A stretch of DNA of 8,224 nucleotides from a virus, in the IMG/VR virus record IMGVR_UViG_3300005099_000176; one strand, given 5' to 3'. Under the pieces are notes generated by a model that was given only the letters and a program-made list of their open reading frames with translations, ran no database searches and was not told where the DNA came from. The stretch's first letter is position 1, and each line of letters starts with the position of its first letter. Made by a program: the position numbers and the translations under genes. Positions 1 through 8,224 of the stretch are shown here, piece by piece.

Positions 1-91
1 GCAAAAATCGACTCCGCCGGCGCAAATTAAATTCGGTCGATCACAGATTTACCGGATTTTGTCGGACCTCTCGAGCGAGCCTAGAACGGAA
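1..91. repeat. Terminal direct repeat, copy 1 (identical to 8134..8224); circular-genome overlap
   Basis: Base-by-base comparison: 1..91 equals 8134..8224 with no mismatch. It contains the rep stop codon (81..83). Confidence 0.95.
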
Positions 92-1565
92 CAAATCTAT
101 CCATGAGACCCGCCAAGTACTCAACCACGGCCGCATGGCCTCCAGACTCCGCGCGCTCCAGGAGAATCTGGCGAACATCGGCTTTCTGATGCAGGACGCA
201 ACGCCATTGCGTCGCCGTGATGCGGACCAGCTCGGCGGCGTCGTCGGCCTCCTCCTCGGCAATCTCTTCGTCCGACACCTGGACAATACCGAAAAGCTCC
301 TTGAGACCGTCCGACCAGATGATTTGCCGCTTGCCGAAAAACGCCTTCGCAAAGACCACGAACAGCGCACCGAAGCGCTTGTGCGAGCCGTCCGCACTTC
401 CGTCGTGATACAGCCTAAGCAAGTCGAAAGGAGTCAGGCTTTTAGCCTGGCCTACCTTGCTATGTTGCTTTGCCATCTCGGAGCCGACACCCCAACGCGG
501 CTCACGCCCGAACTTAGCGACGTACTCGGCGGCAGACTCCATGACGACGACGTTGACGCCCCTGGCCCTGTTCGGCAAGGGAAGGCCAGCAGCCAGGCAA
601 GCGGCACGCCACAAGGCGAACAGCTCGGACCGGAGTTGCCGCAGCCTGGTATCGGATAAGGGCTTCGAAGTCAGCCAAAGGGAATGCTCATGAGGATGCC
701 AGCCGTTAGAATCGCCGTAAGTGACCTCCAGGGCACGAACGTTACCAACATGGCCCATCCGCTGGACTAGCTCACGATAGGCCCTCTGGCGGCGCATACG
801 TGCCCTTGCGTCGGAAAAACGAGCCAGCCAGTCGGCCAGATCGTCGGAACGCTTGTGCGAAGTGGTCAAAGTAATCATGTACAGGCCACCACCTTGCTTC
901 TTGTGCAAGTCCGTCGCCTGGACGACCTCGTTTTTCCGACGCTCCGACACCTTGACGGCGCAAGGCGGACATGTCCATACAGACCCGCACACCATCAAGC
1001 CGCCGAAATGGGCCTTCTTCATCGAAGGGGAATACAAGACGGAAACCTCTGCCCCGACCTTGCGCCGGATGCAGCCCGAAACCCGCCATTGCGTGCCGCG
1101 AGGTGTTACCTCATTGGCAAGTAAGCGCCCTGCGCTGGACTGAGCACTGAGCCGGTTAGCACGAGCGTTCAAAACCGAGAATTCGGACGGGGTTTGAACG
1201 ACGAGTTGGCGGGACCTTGGATGAACCGTAAGTCTTTGAATTTCCCCGGTTTTTTCGTCTAAAACCTCGGTAAATCCGGCTCGTGATTCCGTGTTGTTAC
1301 CAAGGCCCTGCACCACCACCCCGCCCGCCCCCGCTTGCGCGTGGTCAGGCGTGGCGGCGGCACGGGCTTCGCGCTCCAGGCGGCGAACGTAAGCAGGGAA
1401 TCCCTTGGGTTCAAGAAGAGGCGGGGTTGCATCACGAGTCTCGCGATGACGTTGCATTGCTGCAACGTTTGACGCTTCCTGCTCGCGTCCAAATGCGAGT
1501 TTGCGCCGCAGTGTTTGAAGCTCTTGGCCCGTGTAGGGCTTGACTTCTGCTTTTTTATCCAACAA
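81..1565 (-). CDS. Rolling-circle replication initiator, HUH superfamily (pC194/pUB110 Rep_1-like motifs) with a long N-terminal extension
   Basis: The open frame runs 81..1628. Motifs read from the translation: YMITLTT (motif 1), WHPHEHSLW (HUH motif 2), AAEYVAKFG (catalytic Tyr motif 3), and the Cys cluster CGSVWTCPPCAVKVSERR that precedes motif 1 in Rep_1-type proteins. Start chosen at TTG 1565 because AGGAG lies at 1576..1580. The track start at 1628 is also TTG, has no SD sequence, and would place a hairpin/T9 element inside the gene. The start is uncertain (candidates 1628, 1568, 1565, 1562, 1457). Confidence 0.8.
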   Translation of the reverse strand: MLDKKAEVKPYTGQELQTLRRKLAFGREQEASNVAAMQRHRETRDATPPLLEPKGFPAYVRRLEREARAAATPDHAQAGAGGVVVQGLGNNTESRAGFTEVLDEKTGEIQRLTVHPRSRQLVVQTPSEFSVLNARANRLSAQSSAGRLLANEVTPRGTQWRVSGCIRRKVGAEVSVLYSPSMKKAHFGGLMVCGSVWTCPPCAVKVSERRKNEVVQATDLHKKQGGGLYMITLTTSHKRSDDLADWLARFSDARARMRRQRAYRELVQRMGHVGNVRALEVTYGDSNGWHPHEHSLWLTSKPLSDTRLRQLRSELFALWRAACLAAGLPLPNRARGVNVVVMESAAEYVAKFGREPRWGVGSEMAKQHSKVGQAKSLTPFDLLRLYHDGSADGSHKRFGALFVVFAKAFFGKRQIIWSDGLKELFGIVQVSDEEIAEEEADDAAELVRITATQWRCVLHQKADVRQILLERAESGGHAAVVEYLAGLMDRFVPF

Positions 1566-1610
1566 AATTTGCTCACTCCTACTACTTAGCCGTGGACGGA
1601 GAACAGCTAC

Positions 1611-1645
1611 AGAGGGGCCGGACTGCAATCCGGTCCTTTTTTTTT
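1611..1645 (+). terminator. Intrinsic-terminator-like hairpin plus T9, oriented on the plus strand (antisense to rep)
   Basis: An 8-bp stem, 1615..1622 (GGGCCGGA) paired with 1629..1636 (TCCGGTCC, one G-T wobble), and a 6-nt loop, followed directly by nine T (1637..1645). On the minus strand it reads A9 then hairpin with no following T-run. It could instead be an ssDNA origin or packaging hairpin. Confidence 0.4.
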
Positions 1646-2436: not shown

Positions 2437-3690
2437 CTATTCAGGAACAACGCGAGCCGACAGGATTAGAACCAGGTCCGTTTTACTGTTCGTCCCTTCC
2501 TGATTCCTCCAGGTCTTCGGCAGGAACGAGAAGCCCGCATCCCCACTGGAAGACTTTGCATCGTCCAGGCCGCCAATCACCAACACTTGACCGTCCGCCA
2601 CTGAGACCGACGTTTTAACCTGACGCTTGACCAGGGTAGGCGAGCCAGAGACCCCCGTCTTAGTCGCCTGGAAGGACGACACCTGACCGTCAACCAGGAG
2701 GGAAAGACGACCGGACCCAAGGACTTTAGGCAGTACGTCCAGAATCACACCGGAGGGGCGATACACAACGTTCTGGATTGGGTTGCCGACCTGGTCACGG
2801 CTGCTACTGGCGATAGTGGGAGTCTCATCACCGACCGACAGCGAAAGCCTCTCAGCGTCGTCACCCACCACGCGGGAGTTAGAAACCTGACGGAACCGAC
2901 CATCACCGGCCAACGCCTGAAGCACCAGGTCATACCGGCCAGCCCTGACCGAGAACCGCCCATCACCAGGCTCAATGGACACGCCGCCCAGGCGATCAGC
3001 CACAGCATCGGCCACCAGGGAAAGACCACGTGCATTCGTGCCGGTAGTCGTGACCTCGACAAAGGACGCCGACACTTCCACGACAGACGCCGGGACGTCC
3101 AGCTGCTCGACCAGGTCACGCACGGAATCAGCCTGATCCTCCAGGACCGAGACCACCAGGCGAGATCCGCCACCGGACACAGCGACGGGCGCACCGTAGA
3201 CCGTGTTAAGCACCTCAACCACGAAAGGGACCGCCCGATTCTTGAGCGTCAAGACCTGTACCTTCTTCTCAGCCTGGGGAGCTTGGACAACAGCAGGTTC
3301 CTCAACTGCTAGACCAGGTGCGGCCGGCGCCAGAGGTGCGGCCAATGCCGGCGACTCCGAGACCAGGGGCATTGACCCGCCGACAGGTGCAGGCTCCAGG
3401 AAGAAGATCGAACCACGCTCCACCGCCCTGATCCCGTGCGCCTGCAGCACGTTCTCAACGAAGCCAGGCACGGCAGACAACTCGATAGCCTTAACGTTGA
3501 CCGTAATCTTCTTCCCGCTGTTGACCAGGTCACTAGAAACCACGAAGTCACGACCAAGCAGGTTGCCATATGCGACCTTCGCGAAGTCCATCAACGGAAC
3601 CGCTGTGAAATTAAAAGCCACCGGCTCCGACCGGGCCGAAGACGCAAACACGCAAAAAGACACAAACAGGGACACAAACAAGCGCTTCAT
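2437..3690 (-). CDS. Phage-encoded outer-membrane secretin (pIV/GspD family)
   Basis: 417 aa. N-terminal signal peptide MKRLFVSLFVSFCVFASSARSEP. N0-like domain (NFTAVPLMDFAKVAYGNLLGRDFVV...KITVNVK). Ala/Pro linker. C-terminal secretin signature (GQVLVIGGLDD...FSFLPKTWRN...TDLVLILSARVV). The ATG (3690..3688) overlaps the upstream TGA (3689..3687) as ATGA. Confidence 0.85.
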   Translation of the reverse strand: MKRLFVSLFVSFCVFASSARSEPVAFNFTAVPLMDFAKVAYGNLLGRDFVVSSDLVNSGKKITVNVKAIELSAVPGFVENVLQAHGIRAVERGSIFFLEPAPVGGSMPLVSESPALAAPLAPAAPGLAVEEPAVVQAPQAEKKVQVLTLKNRAVPFVVEVLNTVYGAPVAVSGGGSRLVVSVLEDQADSVRDLVEQLDVPASVVEVSASFVEVTTTGTNARGLSLVADAVADRLGGVSIEPGDGRFSVRAGRYDLVLQALAGDGRFRQVSNSRVVGDDAERLSLSVGDETPTIASSSRDQVGNPIQNVVYRPSGVILDVLPKVLGSGRLSLLVDGQVSSFQATKTGVSGSPTLVKRQVKTSVSVADGQVLVIGGLDDAKSSSGDAGFSFLPKTWRNQEGTNSKTDLVLILSARVVPE

Positions 3691-4847
3691 TTCTGAACTC
3701 CCGACACTTCGATATTGCCCTCAAGGACAGCCGACCAACGACCGTCCCCATGCGTGCTAAACGAGACAGGCGTCTCGATACGTCCATCCTCCAGGAAGAT
3801 CAACACCCCGGACGAGCGACGCAAGAAACCGAGCGCCCCTGTGGGCTTGTCATGAACCTTGCCGATTGCCTTGACCGGCGATGGAGTGGGAGGGGGATCA
3901 GATGGCAGCAGGAAGGAACCACCCAGGCCAAGGCAAACGCCGAGGGCCAAAGCAAGAGCGAGAAACTTTGTCATGTGTGGATGCGGAGGCTTGAGAGGTA
4001 ACGCCCGAGGCTTGACCAAAACTAGATCGCCATGCCCAGGAAGGATAGGACCCTGCACGCCGTCAGGAAGCCCGATGCGGGCCGACAGATGCCAGGCCGA
4101 GAGCAAGCAGTGTGTGCCGTGCGGGTAGGTCTCCGAGAAGACCTGTGTCGTGTTGTAGGCGTCGTGCAGATCGTCGCCCTTGAATATCCAGCGATCAGCA
4201 ACCAGGGCGTCAGGGTTCGACCCCAAGCGGACGACAGCAACGTGCACCTTCGGCAGATTGCCCGACACGGCCCCGGCAGTCACGGCGGACACCAGGCCGG
4301 AGACGACGGGCACCTTCATGCGGTCCAACCTGGTCAAGCGGACCACGTACTCAAACAGGGACTCGCGTAGCTGCTTGTCCGCCTGGTTGATGTTCTGCAT
4401 GATGAAGAAGATATCCCAGCCATACTTACGCGCATGGATCATCCACTCCAGCAGTTCGGCCCTCCCCTTCTCAGAAAAGTTCCTGGTGTTGAGCCAAGAG
4501 CCGCATTCGTCCAGGACTAAAGCGCCGTTGTGCGCCTCATCGAAACCACGCAACATCACCGGCGACTTGATCGGTGCCGAACCCTTCCAGCCATCGACCG
4601 TATGCACCAGGTTAGGTTCAAAGGAGACGAACCGATTGCCGCTACCGATCATGTACAGGTCGGCGGCGCTAGGCTTGTCCGGGATGCGGATGACCGAAGC
4701 CGTCGACCGCTCGTCGGCCATGTGCTCCAGGAAGACGTCGCAGTTCGTAGCGACGCGCTTCCCCGCCCGCAGGTATTCGCGCAGCTTTTGCATACCGGCT
4801 TTGCCCTTGCCCGCACCGAGCTTGCCAGTGATCGCGTAGACGGCCAT
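3687..4847 (-). CDS. Zot/pI-like morphogenesis ATPase (inner-membrane assembly protein)
   Basis: Walker A sits at the N-terminus (MAVYAITGKLGAGKGK). Walker B is ALVLDECGSW. There is a single C-proximal TM segment, FLALALALGVCLGLGGSFLL. Start taken at ATG 4847, which overlaps the pVI-like stop (TAATG); the track ORF extends to 4925 but places 26 aa ahead of the P-loop, which is atypical. Confidence 0.85.
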   Translation of the reverse strand: MAVYAITGKLGAGKGKAGMQKLREYLRAGKRVATNCDVFLEHMADERSTASVIRIPDKPSAADLYMIGSGNRFVSFEPNLVHTVDGWKGSAPIKSPVMLRGFDEAHNGALVLDECGSWLNTRNFSEKGRAELLEWMIHARKYGWDIFFIMQNINQADKQLRESLFEYVVRLTRLDRMKVPVVSGLVSAVTAGAVSGNLPKVHVAVVRLGSNPDALVADRWIFKGDDLHDAYNTTQVFSETYPHGTHCLLSAWHLSARIGLPDGVQGPILPGHGDLVLVKPRALPLKPPHPHMTKFLALALALGVCLGLGGSFLLPSDPPPTPSPVKAIGKVHDKPTGALGFLRRSSGVLIFLEDGRIETPVSFSTHGDGRWSAVLEGNIEVSGVQK

Positions 4848-5185
4848 TACATTTTCACGATCATGTTGATGGCCTGCTTTTTGATCACGTACAACTGGCA
4901 CACGATCCAGACCGAGATGTAGCACCCGACGGCGGACAACGTGACCGTGTTAAACGCGATGCCCAGGCCCATAGCAACGGCCTGGTGAGCTTGAGCCATG
5001 CCGGAGATGGACGCCGCACACACGCCGGATACACACGACATCATCGCGGTGAACAAGGCCACGCCGAGCGACAACGCGACGGACCAGGCGGCGAGCCTTG
5101 CCGCTTTCTCCAGGACAAAGAAGCGGGCAAACAGTTTCAGGGCGACCGAGAACAGGCCGCCGAGGAAGGTAGCGAGTAAAGGCAT
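4847..5185 (-). CDS. pVI-like hydrophobic minor virion protein
   Basis: 112 aa with several hydrophobic segments. It sits between the pIII-like and pI-like genes, as gene VI does in Ff phages. GAGGA lies 7 nt upstream of the ATG at 5185. Confidence 0.65.
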   Translation of the reverse strand: MPLLATFLGGLFSVALKLFARFFVLEKAARLAAWSVALSLGVALFTAMMSCVSGVCAASISGMAQAHQAVAMGLGIAFNTVTLSAVGCYISVWIVCQLYVIKKQAINMIVKM

Positions 5186-6652: not shown

Positions 6653-6680
6653 AAATGAAAACGCCCCCGGAGGGGCGAGG
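6653..6680 (-). terminator. Rho-independent terminator downstream of the major coat protein gene
   Basis: The minus strand reads CGCCCC-TCCG-GGGGCG (stem 6662..6667 with 6672..6677), followed by TTTTCATTT. It starts about 20 nt after the coat stop codon (6700..6702). Ff phages have a terminator at the analogous position after gene VIII. Confidence 0.7.
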
Positions 6681-6699: not shown

Positions 6700-6933
6700 T
6701 TACTTCGCAGCGCCGAACGATTTCTTCATCATGCGGATGCCCCAGAAGCCACCAGCGACCAGGACGGCCACGGTGAAGGCTGCGCCGATGTAGGACGTAG
6801 CCTTCGCACCGAGTTCAGTGATGGCGTCGACGCCAGGGTCACCACCTTGAGCCATCGCGTGGCCTGCGGTCACCAGGGCCAGAGCCGGGATCGCCGAGAC
6901 TTTCAGGGCTGCTTTTTTCATTGCTGCATTCAT
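6700..6933 (-). CDS. Major coat protein (pVIII-like) precursor
   Basis: 77 aa from ATG 6933 (AGAGAAAACC lies upstream). Signal peptide MNAAMKKAALKVSAIPALALVTAGHAMA with an AxA cleavage motif. The predicted 49-aa mature protein has an acidic N-terminus (QGGDPGVDAITE), a hydrophobic core (YIGAAFTVAVLVAGGFWGI) and a basic C-terminus (RMMKKSFGAAK). The track's start at 6981 is an unsupported TTG. Confidence 0.85.
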   Translation of the reverse strand: MNAAMKKAALKVSAIPALALVTAGHAMAQGGDPGVDAITELGAKATSYIGAAFTVAVLVAGGFWGIRMMKKSFGAAK

Positions 6934-6999: not shown

Positions 7000-7107
7000 T
7001 CAGTCGAGGGATTCGATGGCCTTCCTGGTTAGACGTATCCAGGAACCCGCCGCATATCCAAGCCCGAAGGCAGAGAGGCAAGCGCTAATAGCGATGGTCA
7101 TCGTCAT
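7000..7107 (-). CDS. Tiny hydrophobic protein, 35 aa (pVII/pIX-like candidate)
   Basis: MTMTIAISACLSAFGLGYAAGSWIRLTRKAIESLD. AGAGGG lies 7 nt upstream. The ATG (7107..7105) overlaps the preceding TGA (7106..7104) as ATGA. One TM-like segment followed by a basic tail. Confidence 0.6.
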   Translation of the reverse strand: MTMTIAISACLSAFGLGYAAGSWIRLTRKAIESLD

Positions 7108-7226
7108 AGACCGGCCCTCTTGTATCGTTGAACCAGGAAGCGGACAAACAAGACGCCGCCGATCCAAAGACCGACACAAGCCAGGACCGGCCACACCGCC
7201 GCCCATAGGACGCTCCAGTTATTCAT
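7104..7226 (-). CDS. Tiny hydrophobic protein, 40 aa
   Basis: MNNWSVLWAAVWPVLACVGLWIGGVLFVRFLVQRYKRAGL (hand translated). AGGA lies 7 nt upstream. It has ATGA overlaps with the ORFs on both sides. Trp-rich TM segment plus a basic C-terminus. Confidence 0.55.
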   Translation of the reverse strand: MNNWSVLWAAVWPVLACVGLWIGGVLFVRFLVQRYKRAGL

Positions 7227-7300
7227 TCGTGATTCCTGAAAAGCACCACCACCAGGAGGACCAAGGCGGCGACAACGGCGAGCAAGTCAGCGATATTCAC
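7223..7300 (-). CDS. Tiny hydrophobic protein, 25 aa (GTG start)
   Basis: (M)NIADLLAVVAALVLLVVVLFRNHE. GTG (7300..7298) overlaps the preceding TGA (7299..7297) as GTGA, and its own TGA overlaps the next ATG. It is very short and has a non-ATG start, so confidence is lower. Confidence 0.4.
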   Translation of the reverse strand: MNIADLLAVVAALVLLVVVLFRNHE

Positions 7301-7383
7301 CGCTGTTGTCCCGCGATCCAGCCGAGGGCGAAACAGCAGACGACGGCAACGCCTAACAAAACTTCAGGCGTGACGGCTTCCAT
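7297..7383 (-). CDS. Tiny hydrophobic protein, 28 aa
   Basis: MEAVTPEVLLGVAVVCCFALGWIAGQQR. The ATG (7383..7381) overlaps the TAA of the upstream 105-aa gene (TAATG). Single TM-like segment. Confidence 0.5.
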   Translation of the reverse strand: MEAVTPEVLLGVAVVCCFALGWIAGQQR

Positions 7384-7700
7384 TACGCAGCCTTAGCGAG
7401 AGGGAAAATTTTCGGGGTAGAGAGGAACTTGAAGCCGACGACAGTAGCCGCAAGAGCGTTGCCCTTGCCTGGACGCATCTTTACATCGACCTCGAACAGG
7501 GACGGCAGATCGTGAGCCATCAGGGATGCGAAGACTTCAGGCTCAACCATGACCTTCATGGGCTTGCAGCCTTTTTCTTTATCGCTGGCGACGCGGTAAT
7601 CGTTGGACATCCAGACCTGGTGCAATTTCTGGACTTCGCCGGTTTGGCTATCAGGAATTTCGTACTTATCGCACGAGAGAATGAGGGCGGTATCAGCCAT
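7383..7700 (-). CDS. First gene of the structural operon; candidate ssDNA-binding protein (gV analogue), assigned by position and size only
   Basis: 105 aa. AGGA lies 6 nt upstream of the ATG at 7700. The sequence looks beta-rich (LILSCDKYEI, KVMVEPEVF, LFEVDVKMRPGKGNALAATVVGFKFL). It occupies the gene V slot, immediately before the tiny hydrophobic ORFs and the coat gene. I recognise no sequence motif. Confidence 0.45.
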   Translation of the reverse strand: MADTALILSCDKYEIPDSQTGEVQKLHQVWMSNDYRVASDKEKGCKPMKVMVEPEVFASLMAHDLPSLFEVDVKMRPGKGNALAATVVGFKFLSTPKIFPLAKAA

Positions 7701-7768: not shown

Positions 7769-7798
7769 AATGTATCTCTCAATGTTTACCGCTGTCAA
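7769..7798 (-). promoter_or_regulatory. Candidate promoter of the structural/assembly operon: TTGACA, 18-nt spacer, TACATT
   Basis: On the minus strand, TTGACA is the complement of 7793..7798 (inside the palindrome) and TACATT is the complement of 7769..7774. This is about 70 nt upstream of the ATG at 7700. Confidence 0.45.
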
Positions 7799-8099: not shown

Positions 8100-8170
8100 T
8101 TCGACCTGGTCAACTGGAAAAACGCTCTCGAGCGCAAAAATCGACTCCGCCGGCGCAAATTAAATTCGGT
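8089..8170. repeat. 13-bp perfect inverted repeat (ACCGAATTTAATT ... AATTAAATTCGGT) enclosing 56 nt in the convergent repressor/rep intergenic region
   Basis: Arms lie at 8089..8101 (including the repressor TAA stop) and 8158..8170 (the same bases as 25..37). The loop holds a small CGCT-CTCG-AGCG hairpin (8123..8134) flanked by A5 on both sides, which reads T5-hairpin-T5 on the minus strand. Confidence 0.6.
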
Positions 8171-8224
8171 CGATCACAGATTTACCGGATTTTGTCGGAC
8201 CTCTCGAGCGAGCCTAGAACGGAA
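8134..8224. repeat. Terminal direct repeat, copy 2 (identical to 1..91); circular-genome overlap
   Basis: Exact 91-bp identity with the window start. It re-presents the last codons of rep (stop at 8214..8216). Confidence 0.95.

Follow-up and report, generated by a model that had tools for sequence, protein, structure and literature searches.

The two small genes gVII and gIX of Ff filamentous phages encode pVII and pIX, which initiate assembly of the filament at the packaging signal and serve in phage display. The leading tip of f1 has been solved as a pVII5/pIX5 assembly, and to our knowledge the pVII/pIX architecture has been solved for Ff phages only. Coupled translation of Ff gene VII was reportedly described by Ivey-Hoyle and Steege. 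All f1 tip proteins are membrane proteins before assembly; in the tip, the arginines at the C termini of pVII and pIX point toward the DNA, and Arg26 and Glu29 of pIX are DNA facing and bonded to pVII (PMC10175506). Here, we analyzed the equivalent region of the virus record IMGVR_UViG_3300005099_000176, a stretch of 8,224 nucleotides (nt) that is called the window below. Four minus-strand open reading frames (ORFs), here named O1 to O4, tile its positions 7000 to 7383 from the gV-like gene to the coat gene:

7297-7383, minus strand: O1, 28 amino acids, ATG start, MEAVTPEVLLGVAVVCCFALGWIAGQQR
7223-7300, minus strand: O2, 25 amino acids, GTG start, MNIADLLAVVAALVLLVVVLFRNHE
7104-7226, minus strand: O3, 40 amino acids, ATG start
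7000-7107, minus strand: O4, 35 amino acids, MTMTIAISACLSAFGLGYAAGSWIRLTRKAIESLD, with its ATG internal to a listed 68-amino-acid ORF at 7000-7206

The original prediction had described a chain of four tiny hydrophobic ORFs joined by overlapping stop and start codons, where Ff phages have two genes. Both the ORF list and the sequence confirm the four lengths, and the junctions read as described: the TAA stop of gV overlaps the ATG of O1 by 1 nt (TAATG, at 7383), O1 and O2 share GTGA (7297-7300), and O2/O3 and O3/O4 each share ATGA (7223-7226 and 7104-7107). Each mini-ORF encodes one hydrophobic segment, with best 15-residue Kyte-Doolittle means of 2.55, 3.56, 2.51, and 1.74 for O1 to O4, compared to 2.55 and 1.98 for M13 pVII and pIX. 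The 68-amino-acid ORF at 7000-7206 was rejected as a gene; it is the O4 frame read upstream, and its extra part overlaps O3.

Like the gVII-gIX module of Ff and IKe (8b3p), the block sits between gV and gVIII. M13 (1108-1209, 1206-1304, and 1301 onward) and IKe have stop/start overlaps as in the window, and their pVII and pIX resemble the window peptides in being about 30 amino acids long, with a single helix and without a signal peptide. The window differs from Ff and IKe by two more ORFs between the gVII and gIX equivalents, and from Ff also by a Rep_1-type replication protein and a divergent helix-turn-helix (HTH) gene. The two ORFs beyond the Ff set are the inner pair, O2 and O3, the outer pair, O1 and O4, being equivalent to gVII and gIX. 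The O3 family is new, O2 is a rare accessory ORF, and the gVII and gIX equivalents belong to what is known. From the comparisons described below, we consider it fairly probable that the block is a leading-tip module of three core genes, those for pVII, O3, and pIX, with a variable accessory slot.

Related loci (designated by L numbers; L007 stands for L131/L132, which are one lineage) were collected by coat-based scans, by protein searches with O3 and with gV, by contig look-ups, and by DNA scans for the pVII motif in viral contigs and in metagenomes. In the metagenome scan for GWIAGQQR, the best 80 of 96 stretches were almost all chance matches, and among the matches listed, the only new relatives were L092 and L114, both with three genes. 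An O3-family ORF lies between the pVII and pIX genes in 34 distinct loci besides the window, and O3 is kept in every related three- or four-gene locus (34/34 others). Genomes carrying it include those of Rugamonas, Duganella, Massilia, Pseudoduganella, and Undibacterium; O3 is a core gene, in the same exact position, of an inovirus/prophage clade of Oxalobacteraceae.

Members of the O3 family have 32 to 43 amino acids, an N-terminal hydrophobic helix with an invariant proline, and an invariant arginine near the end, and the net charge of the last 13 residues is +2 to +5 in 35/35 sequences. The gVII/O3 junction is a 4-nt overlap in 27/32 three-gene loci, and the O3/gIX junction overlaps by 4 nt in 26/35 loci and by 1 nt in 8/35. 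A hidden Markov model (HMM) built with the window left out finds the window O3 at an expectation value (E) of 3.5e-15, the next-best window segment reaching 0.48. The original prediction had asked for the state of the mini-ORFs and the selection on them in relatives. Frame-breaking indels were looked for there and none was found; the ORFs are intact wherever present, and O2 is cleanly absent elsewhere. In the closest pairs, the ratio of the changed fractions of non-synonymous and synonymous sites (pN/pS) of O3 is 0.10 and 0.08, which denotes purifying selection. For L018/L020, 11/23 synonymous and 4/82 non-synonymous sites are changed, and for L012/L024, 17/26 and 4/79; the pVII and pIX ratios in these two pairs are as low. 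A median ratio of non-synonymous to synonymous substitution rates (dN/dS) of 0.78 for O3 over all moderately diverged pairs was set aside because synonymous sites are saturated, and the closest pairs were used instead. On these comparisons, O3 is a real, conserved, uncharacterized protein-coding gene between gVII and gIX.

These data also bear on the idea that the whole chain consists of chance short ORFs in GC-rich DNA. Short ORFs are indeed common in this genome of 58% GC, with 121 of at least 20 amino acids, but for three of the four mini-ORFs the protein is conserved in dozens of diverged relatives and the changes are biased toward synonymous sites, and O1 matches a solved f1 protein. Chance is already refuted as an explanation for O1, O3, and O4, and for the chain as a whole we regard it as extremely improbable.

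Furthermore, we searched for described relatives of O3. The family is represented by 49 clusters in a set of 5.8 billion proteins and by 42 representatives in a set of 1.84 billion; nearly all of these have 29 to 53 amino acids, the named ones are all annotated "hypothetical protein," and none has a Pfam domain. Searches of Pfam, PHROGs, NCBIfam, PADLOC, and solved structures with O3 gave nothing below an E of 0.05, and tblastn with an O3-family member against 50,697 phage records gave no match. A duplicate of the pIX-like protein, the coat protein, or pVII as the source of O3 was rejected at profile-profile probabilities below 1%. Automated gene callers were expected to miss some of the mini-ORFs, and the inspected relatives bear this out: pVII and O2 were skipped in L131/L132, pVII and O3 in L135, and pVII and pIX in L031.

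Two-gene blocks exist in other phages. In the Vibrio phages fs2 and VFJ, orf38 and orf38-2 (annotated "VII protein" and "IX protein") form a block without an O3 or O2 equivalent, which in VFJ consists of two coupled ORFs of 38 amino acids ahead of the coat gene. The GWIAG.QR end of pVII seen in the O3 clade also occurs in two-gene loci (L140/L144/L155 and L151), where a VFJ-like second gene follows directly; L140 and L151, both uncultured, thus join this type of pVII with a VFJ-like partner. Because Ff, IKe, VFJ, L140/L144/L155, and L151 have two genes, the three-gene layout is a clade-specific state, which could reflect insertion in this clade or loss elsewhere.

O1 is, on profile and motif evidence, a gVII (pVII) homolog. 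A profile of 17 O1 relatives searched against the PDB matched the f1 "Tail virion protein G7P" (8b3p) with an E of 1e-5 and 28.7 bits, and O1 matched PHROG 7781, "minor coat protein," with an E of 8e-6. As a single sequence, it reached Pfam Inovirus_G7P_2 (PF19978) with an E of 3e-4 and 20.8 bits, below the curated cut-off of 27. The C terminus of O1, ...CFALGWIAGQQR, corresponds to ...CFALGIIAGGQR of f1 G7P, the two proteins having in common an end of the form ...CFALG(I/W)IAG.QR; O1 ends in ...GQQR, and the C-terminal arginine is invariant in the 17 relatives. O1 also fits the form of pVII in that it is the first small ORF after gV, with an overlapping start, about 30 amino acids, one hydrophobic helix, and no signal peptide.

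In several relatives, the pVII homologs carry long N-terminal extensions, to a total of 55 to 143 amino acids:

L010, 1060-1317: extended pVII
L011, 1855-2139: extended pVII
L022, 1892-2212: extended pVII
L026, 2064-2231: extended pVII
L133, 1828-2259: extended pVII, the extension with an internal repeat
L142, 1551-1724, reverse strand: extended pVII, the extension signal-peptide-like

In f1, the particle ends with the N terminus of pVII, and extensions of this kind could therefore act as natural displays at the tip. Other contigs share gV with the window (81-83% identity) and have no pVII, O3, and pIX genes (L002 3326-4145 and L136/L137 1501-2392); an ORF of 87 to 100 amino acids and a coat protein of 70 to 72 amino acids follow gV there as a different structural block. 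This switch of the structural block directly after a shared gV suggests that a recombination breakpoint lies at the gV/gVII junction.

O4 is the gIX (pIX) equivalent, an assignment based mainly on position and form. A leave-window-out HMM of the O4 family finds the window copy with an E of 2.5e-21, and in all loci the family member is the last mini-ORF before the coat gene. It fits the form of pIX, with a class length of 32 to 38 amino acids, one hydrophobic helix, and basic and acidic residues near the C terminus; R25, R28, and E32 are nearly invariant in the family, and f1 pIX likewise has Arg and Glu near its C terminus. The similarity to Ff pIX is weak: hhalign of the O4 family with M13 pIX gave an E of 0.012 and a probability of 3.6%. 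Also weak were the comparisons with the VFJ "IX protein" (E of 4e-4, probability 35%) and with the second of the two tip genes in L151 (E of 6e-5, probability 65%). The O4 family had no match at an E below 10 in the PDB, O4 had none in Pfam or PHROGs, and tblastn of O4 against the 50,697 phage records found no match.

A further described peptide resembles the mini-ORFs in being tiny and hydrophobic and in being encoded directly after a gene for a single-stranded DNA (ssDNA)-binding protein, namely, PfsE of Pf4 with its Pf1 counterpart, orf30. PfsE (PA0721), an inner-membrane peptide of 30 amino acids, blocks type IV pili by binding to PilC (PMC8764522), a function tested in Pseudomonas only, and pfsE has been labeled gVII (PMC12328805). 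Comparison of Pf1 orf30 (L165 452-544) with the pVII profile of the clade by hhalign aligned GWIDG with GWIAG (E of 1.8e-4, probability 48%), which agrees with the papers that label pfsE gVII. Local alignments of the window O2, the L007 O2, and O3 with Pf1 orf30, including its YAWGW aromatic cluster, did not differ from shuffled sequences (p = 0.90, 0.51, and 0.58). By these alignments, the counterpart of PfsE is O1 and neither O2 nor O3.

O2 fills exactly a 70-nt spacer between the gVII stop and the O3 start. The same spacing is 94 nt in L007; it is -4 to +7 nt across all three-gene loci and -4 to +3 nt in the nine relatives that were lined up. Only two lineages have O2, the window and L007/L131/L132. 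The other 33 of 35 three- or four-gene loci in the comparison lack it; among these are L133 and L135, which have the closest gV (89% identity), and L029 and L030, whose O3 is closest to that of L007. An O2 profile searched against six-frame translations of about 1 Mb of related-locus DNA found only the L007 copies, and O2 had no family match in Pfam, PHROGs, and the other family libraries searched. O2 is an accessory, rare insert that, judged from its sequence, probably codes for a peptide.

An insert of 70 to 94 nt might also be no gene and stay open by chance between the flanking stop and start. The chain is weak evidence for O2 on this point, because the flanking genes supply both its GTG start and its TGA stop, and a gap-filling ORF survives in 69% of dinucleotide shuffles of the window's 70-nt insert. 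For O1, O3, and O4, it is conservation that speaks against chance; the argument from an unbroken chain, as put forward in the original prediction, is weak for O2. The GTG of the window O2 lies inside the gVII stop region with no Shine-Dalgarno sequence, and the absence of O2 from most loci, from the family libraries, and from the gene callers' output would also suit a noncoding insert. In contrast, only 3.9% of shuffles of the L007 insert are open, and the L007 O2 starts with an ATG preceded by a consensus Shine-Dalgarno sequence, GAGGTGA. The window and L007 copies (25 and 29 amino acids) share 11 identities, with an alignment score of 26 versus 0.8 ± 7.2 for shuffles (p of about 0.001), so that the peptides resemble each other more than their composition would predict. 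Two indels, each of 6 nt and in frame, separate the copies, and 7/11 identical residues use different codons. In both, GC is low at codon position 2 and high at position 3 (0.69/0.23/0.73 in the window and 0.53/0.30/0.70 in L007), as in the real genes of the phage. A structured RNA in the insert was considered and rejected, the folding z score of -1.85 being unremarkable. The pN between the two copies is high (0.41), and the comparison of the window with L007 is the one independent comparison available for O2. Taken together, we regard the absence of a gene here as possible but doubtful.

A coding O2 would most likely not be a capsid subunit but an accessory small membrane peptide, comparable to those that other inoviruses direct at the host or at superinfection, because its C terminus is neutral, unlike those of DNA-facing capsid proteins, its distribution is patchy, and its start signals in the window are weak. 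It may act on the host or on incoming phage. An origin of O2 by duplication of O3 or pVII was not supported (probability of about 2%), and p values of 0.005 to 0.04 in some pairings of O2 with pVII of IKe, M13, and VFJ were not significant after ten tests. A different ORF occupies the slot between pVII and an O3-like gene in L142 (1721-1951, reverse strand); it has 76 amino acids and two hydrophobic segments, is GTGA-coupled to gVII, is unrelated in sequence to O2, and was seen in this one instance. With O2, the L142 ORF, and the N-terminal extensions of pVII, the 5' side of the mini-ORF block tolerates and collects additions.

How the block might be expressed is suggested by two pattern matches on the minus strand:

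7769-7798, minus strand: promoter-like site upstream of gV, TTGACA-18-TACATT, 10/12 in a consensus scan and a pattern match only
6662-6677, minus strand: intrinsic-terminator-like hairpin just past the coat gene, CGCCCCTCCGGGGGCG followed by a T-run, from a consensus scan

The first likely starts a gV-to-gVIII transcript. The hairpin is GC-rich, and the Pf1 record has an annotated rho-independent terminator after its coat gene. With a promoter-like site before gV and a terminator-like hairpin after the coat gene, the gV-to-gVIII block looks like one transcription unit. The block thus has the features of the Ff-type gV-gVII-gIX-gVIII arrangement, namely, overlapping stop and start codons (with coupling predicted) and promoter- and terminator-like sites. 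Translation of O1 to O4 from this one transcript would be coupled through termination and reinitiation, as for gV/gVII/gIX in Ff, and each peptide would enter the inner membrane as a single helix with the N terminus out and the C terminus in, as Ff capsid proteins do before assembly.

The layout of O3, a short N terminus, one helix, and a basic C terminus, would be that of pVII, pIX, and pVIII, whose C termini face the DNA in f1. In the proposed module, the place of O3 would be with pVII and pIX, either at the leading (round) tip or in a membrane complex capturing the packaging hairpin. Its coupling on both sides to gVII and gIX and its basic tail make O3 most likely a third stoichiometric component of this tip or of the membrane-bound intermediate from which the tip is assembled. 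A more specific version, which we put forward only tentatively, makes O3 a third structural tip protein, with the DNA-capping end built from pVII, O3, and pIX and with the adjacent slot as an effector hotspot. O3 might then occupy the place of the first pVIII layer around the pVII bundle.

By the positive-inside rule, a basic C terminus is expected for any small inner-membrane protein, so the tail of O3 is no proof of a role in the virion. This point weighs against a three-protein tip module, as do the lack of detectable similarity of O3 to pVII, pIX, the coat protein, or any solved structure, the link of O4 to pIX, which draws on weak scores (M13 pIX included) plus position, and the shuffles, start signal, pN, and single comparison given above for O2. 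O3 could instead be expressed and yet not enter the virion. As an inner-membrane assembly factor, it could dock the complex of pVII, pIX, and packaging signal to pI; as a host-acting peptide, it could serve in superinfection exclusion or receptor down-regulation. Such a role would suit a protein without similarity to any capsid protein, and O3 is not needed universally, since related phages that share the pVII motif of the clade assemble with two small genes. It would also have a parallel in PfsE, where a peptide of 30 amino acids in the gVII position acts on the host protein PilC (PMC8764522; gVII label, PMC12328805). On the other hand, nearly all loci couple O3 to both tip genes, no member of the clade has lost it, and it has the helix-plus-basic-tail layout of DNA-facing capsid proteins; we consider an O3 outside the virion unlikely. 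The reading we prefer thus remains O3 as a component of the tip or of its assembly intermediate.

The window as a whole carries an exact direct repeat of 91 nt at both ends (1-91 and 8134-8224 of 8,224 nt). With this repeat, it is a complete circular genome of an Ff-like inovirus with a unit length of 8,133 nt, and its source is probably replicative form or virion DNA rather than a fragment of a prophage. The genes outside the mini-ORF block are as follows:

81-1628, minus strand: Rep_1 replication protein (Pfam)
2437-3690, minus strand: secretin (Pfam)
3687-4925, minus strand: Zot/pI ATPase (Pfam)
minus strand: pVI-like and pIII-like proteins
plus strand: divergent HTH gene
6700-6933, minus strand: major coat protein gene, gVIII-like, 77 amino acids with a signal peptide (Pfam Phage_coatGP8)
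7383-7700, minus strand: gV-like gene, 105 amino acids, putative ssDNA-binding protein, assigned by position

The coat protein matches Phage_coatGP8 with an E of 2.3e-10, above the cut-off, and PHROG 1646 with an E of 2.6e-11. The gV-like protein has no Pfam match; it has 63 relatives at an E of 1e-10 or below, and the mini-ORFs always lie downstream of them. The pI of the window is 39 to 41% identical to the pI proteins of Vibrio VFJ, Erwinia PEar, IKe, and Ff, VFJ pI being the closest among named phages (38.7% identity). At the DNA level, megablast and blastn of the whole window and of the region against the 50,697 phage records gave no match. A gV search of reference genomes yielded no confirmed locus, and relatives were reached through the coat alignment; exact look-ups of the window's O3, gV, and O4 proteins found none on record. 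Prophages with the same coat protein are found in Rugamonas, Duganella, Massilia, Pseudoduganella, and Undibacterium, which makes a species of the Oxalobacteraceae the probable host.

Two observations concern other parts of the genome. At 4845-4925, the listed pI ORF, which starts with a GTG at 4925, overlaps the pVI-like gene by 79 nt. As the Zot domain begins at residue 28 of this ORF (MAVYAITGKLGAGKG), the true start of pI is probably the ATG at 4847, with a 1-nt overlap with the pVI stop, which would extend the coupling chain. Between the secretin and Rep genes (1901-2348), two minus-strand ORFs of 97 and 53 amino acids gave no Pfam match; the relative L131 has a weak RepB-RCR_reg match at the equivalent place.

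A clade with a conserved third mini-protein between gVII and gIX offers a natural test of how fixed the architecture of the tip is. With O3 comes a family that none of the libraries searched contains and that gene callers skipped in one inspected contig, and the relatives described here provide concrete cases of inovirus genes for 25 to 40 amino acids being dropped by such programs. The slot beside O3 is a candidate site for small host-directed peptides of filamentous phages that are comparable to PfsE. Compared with M13, this phage may have a more complex tip or more complex membrane partners of the tip.

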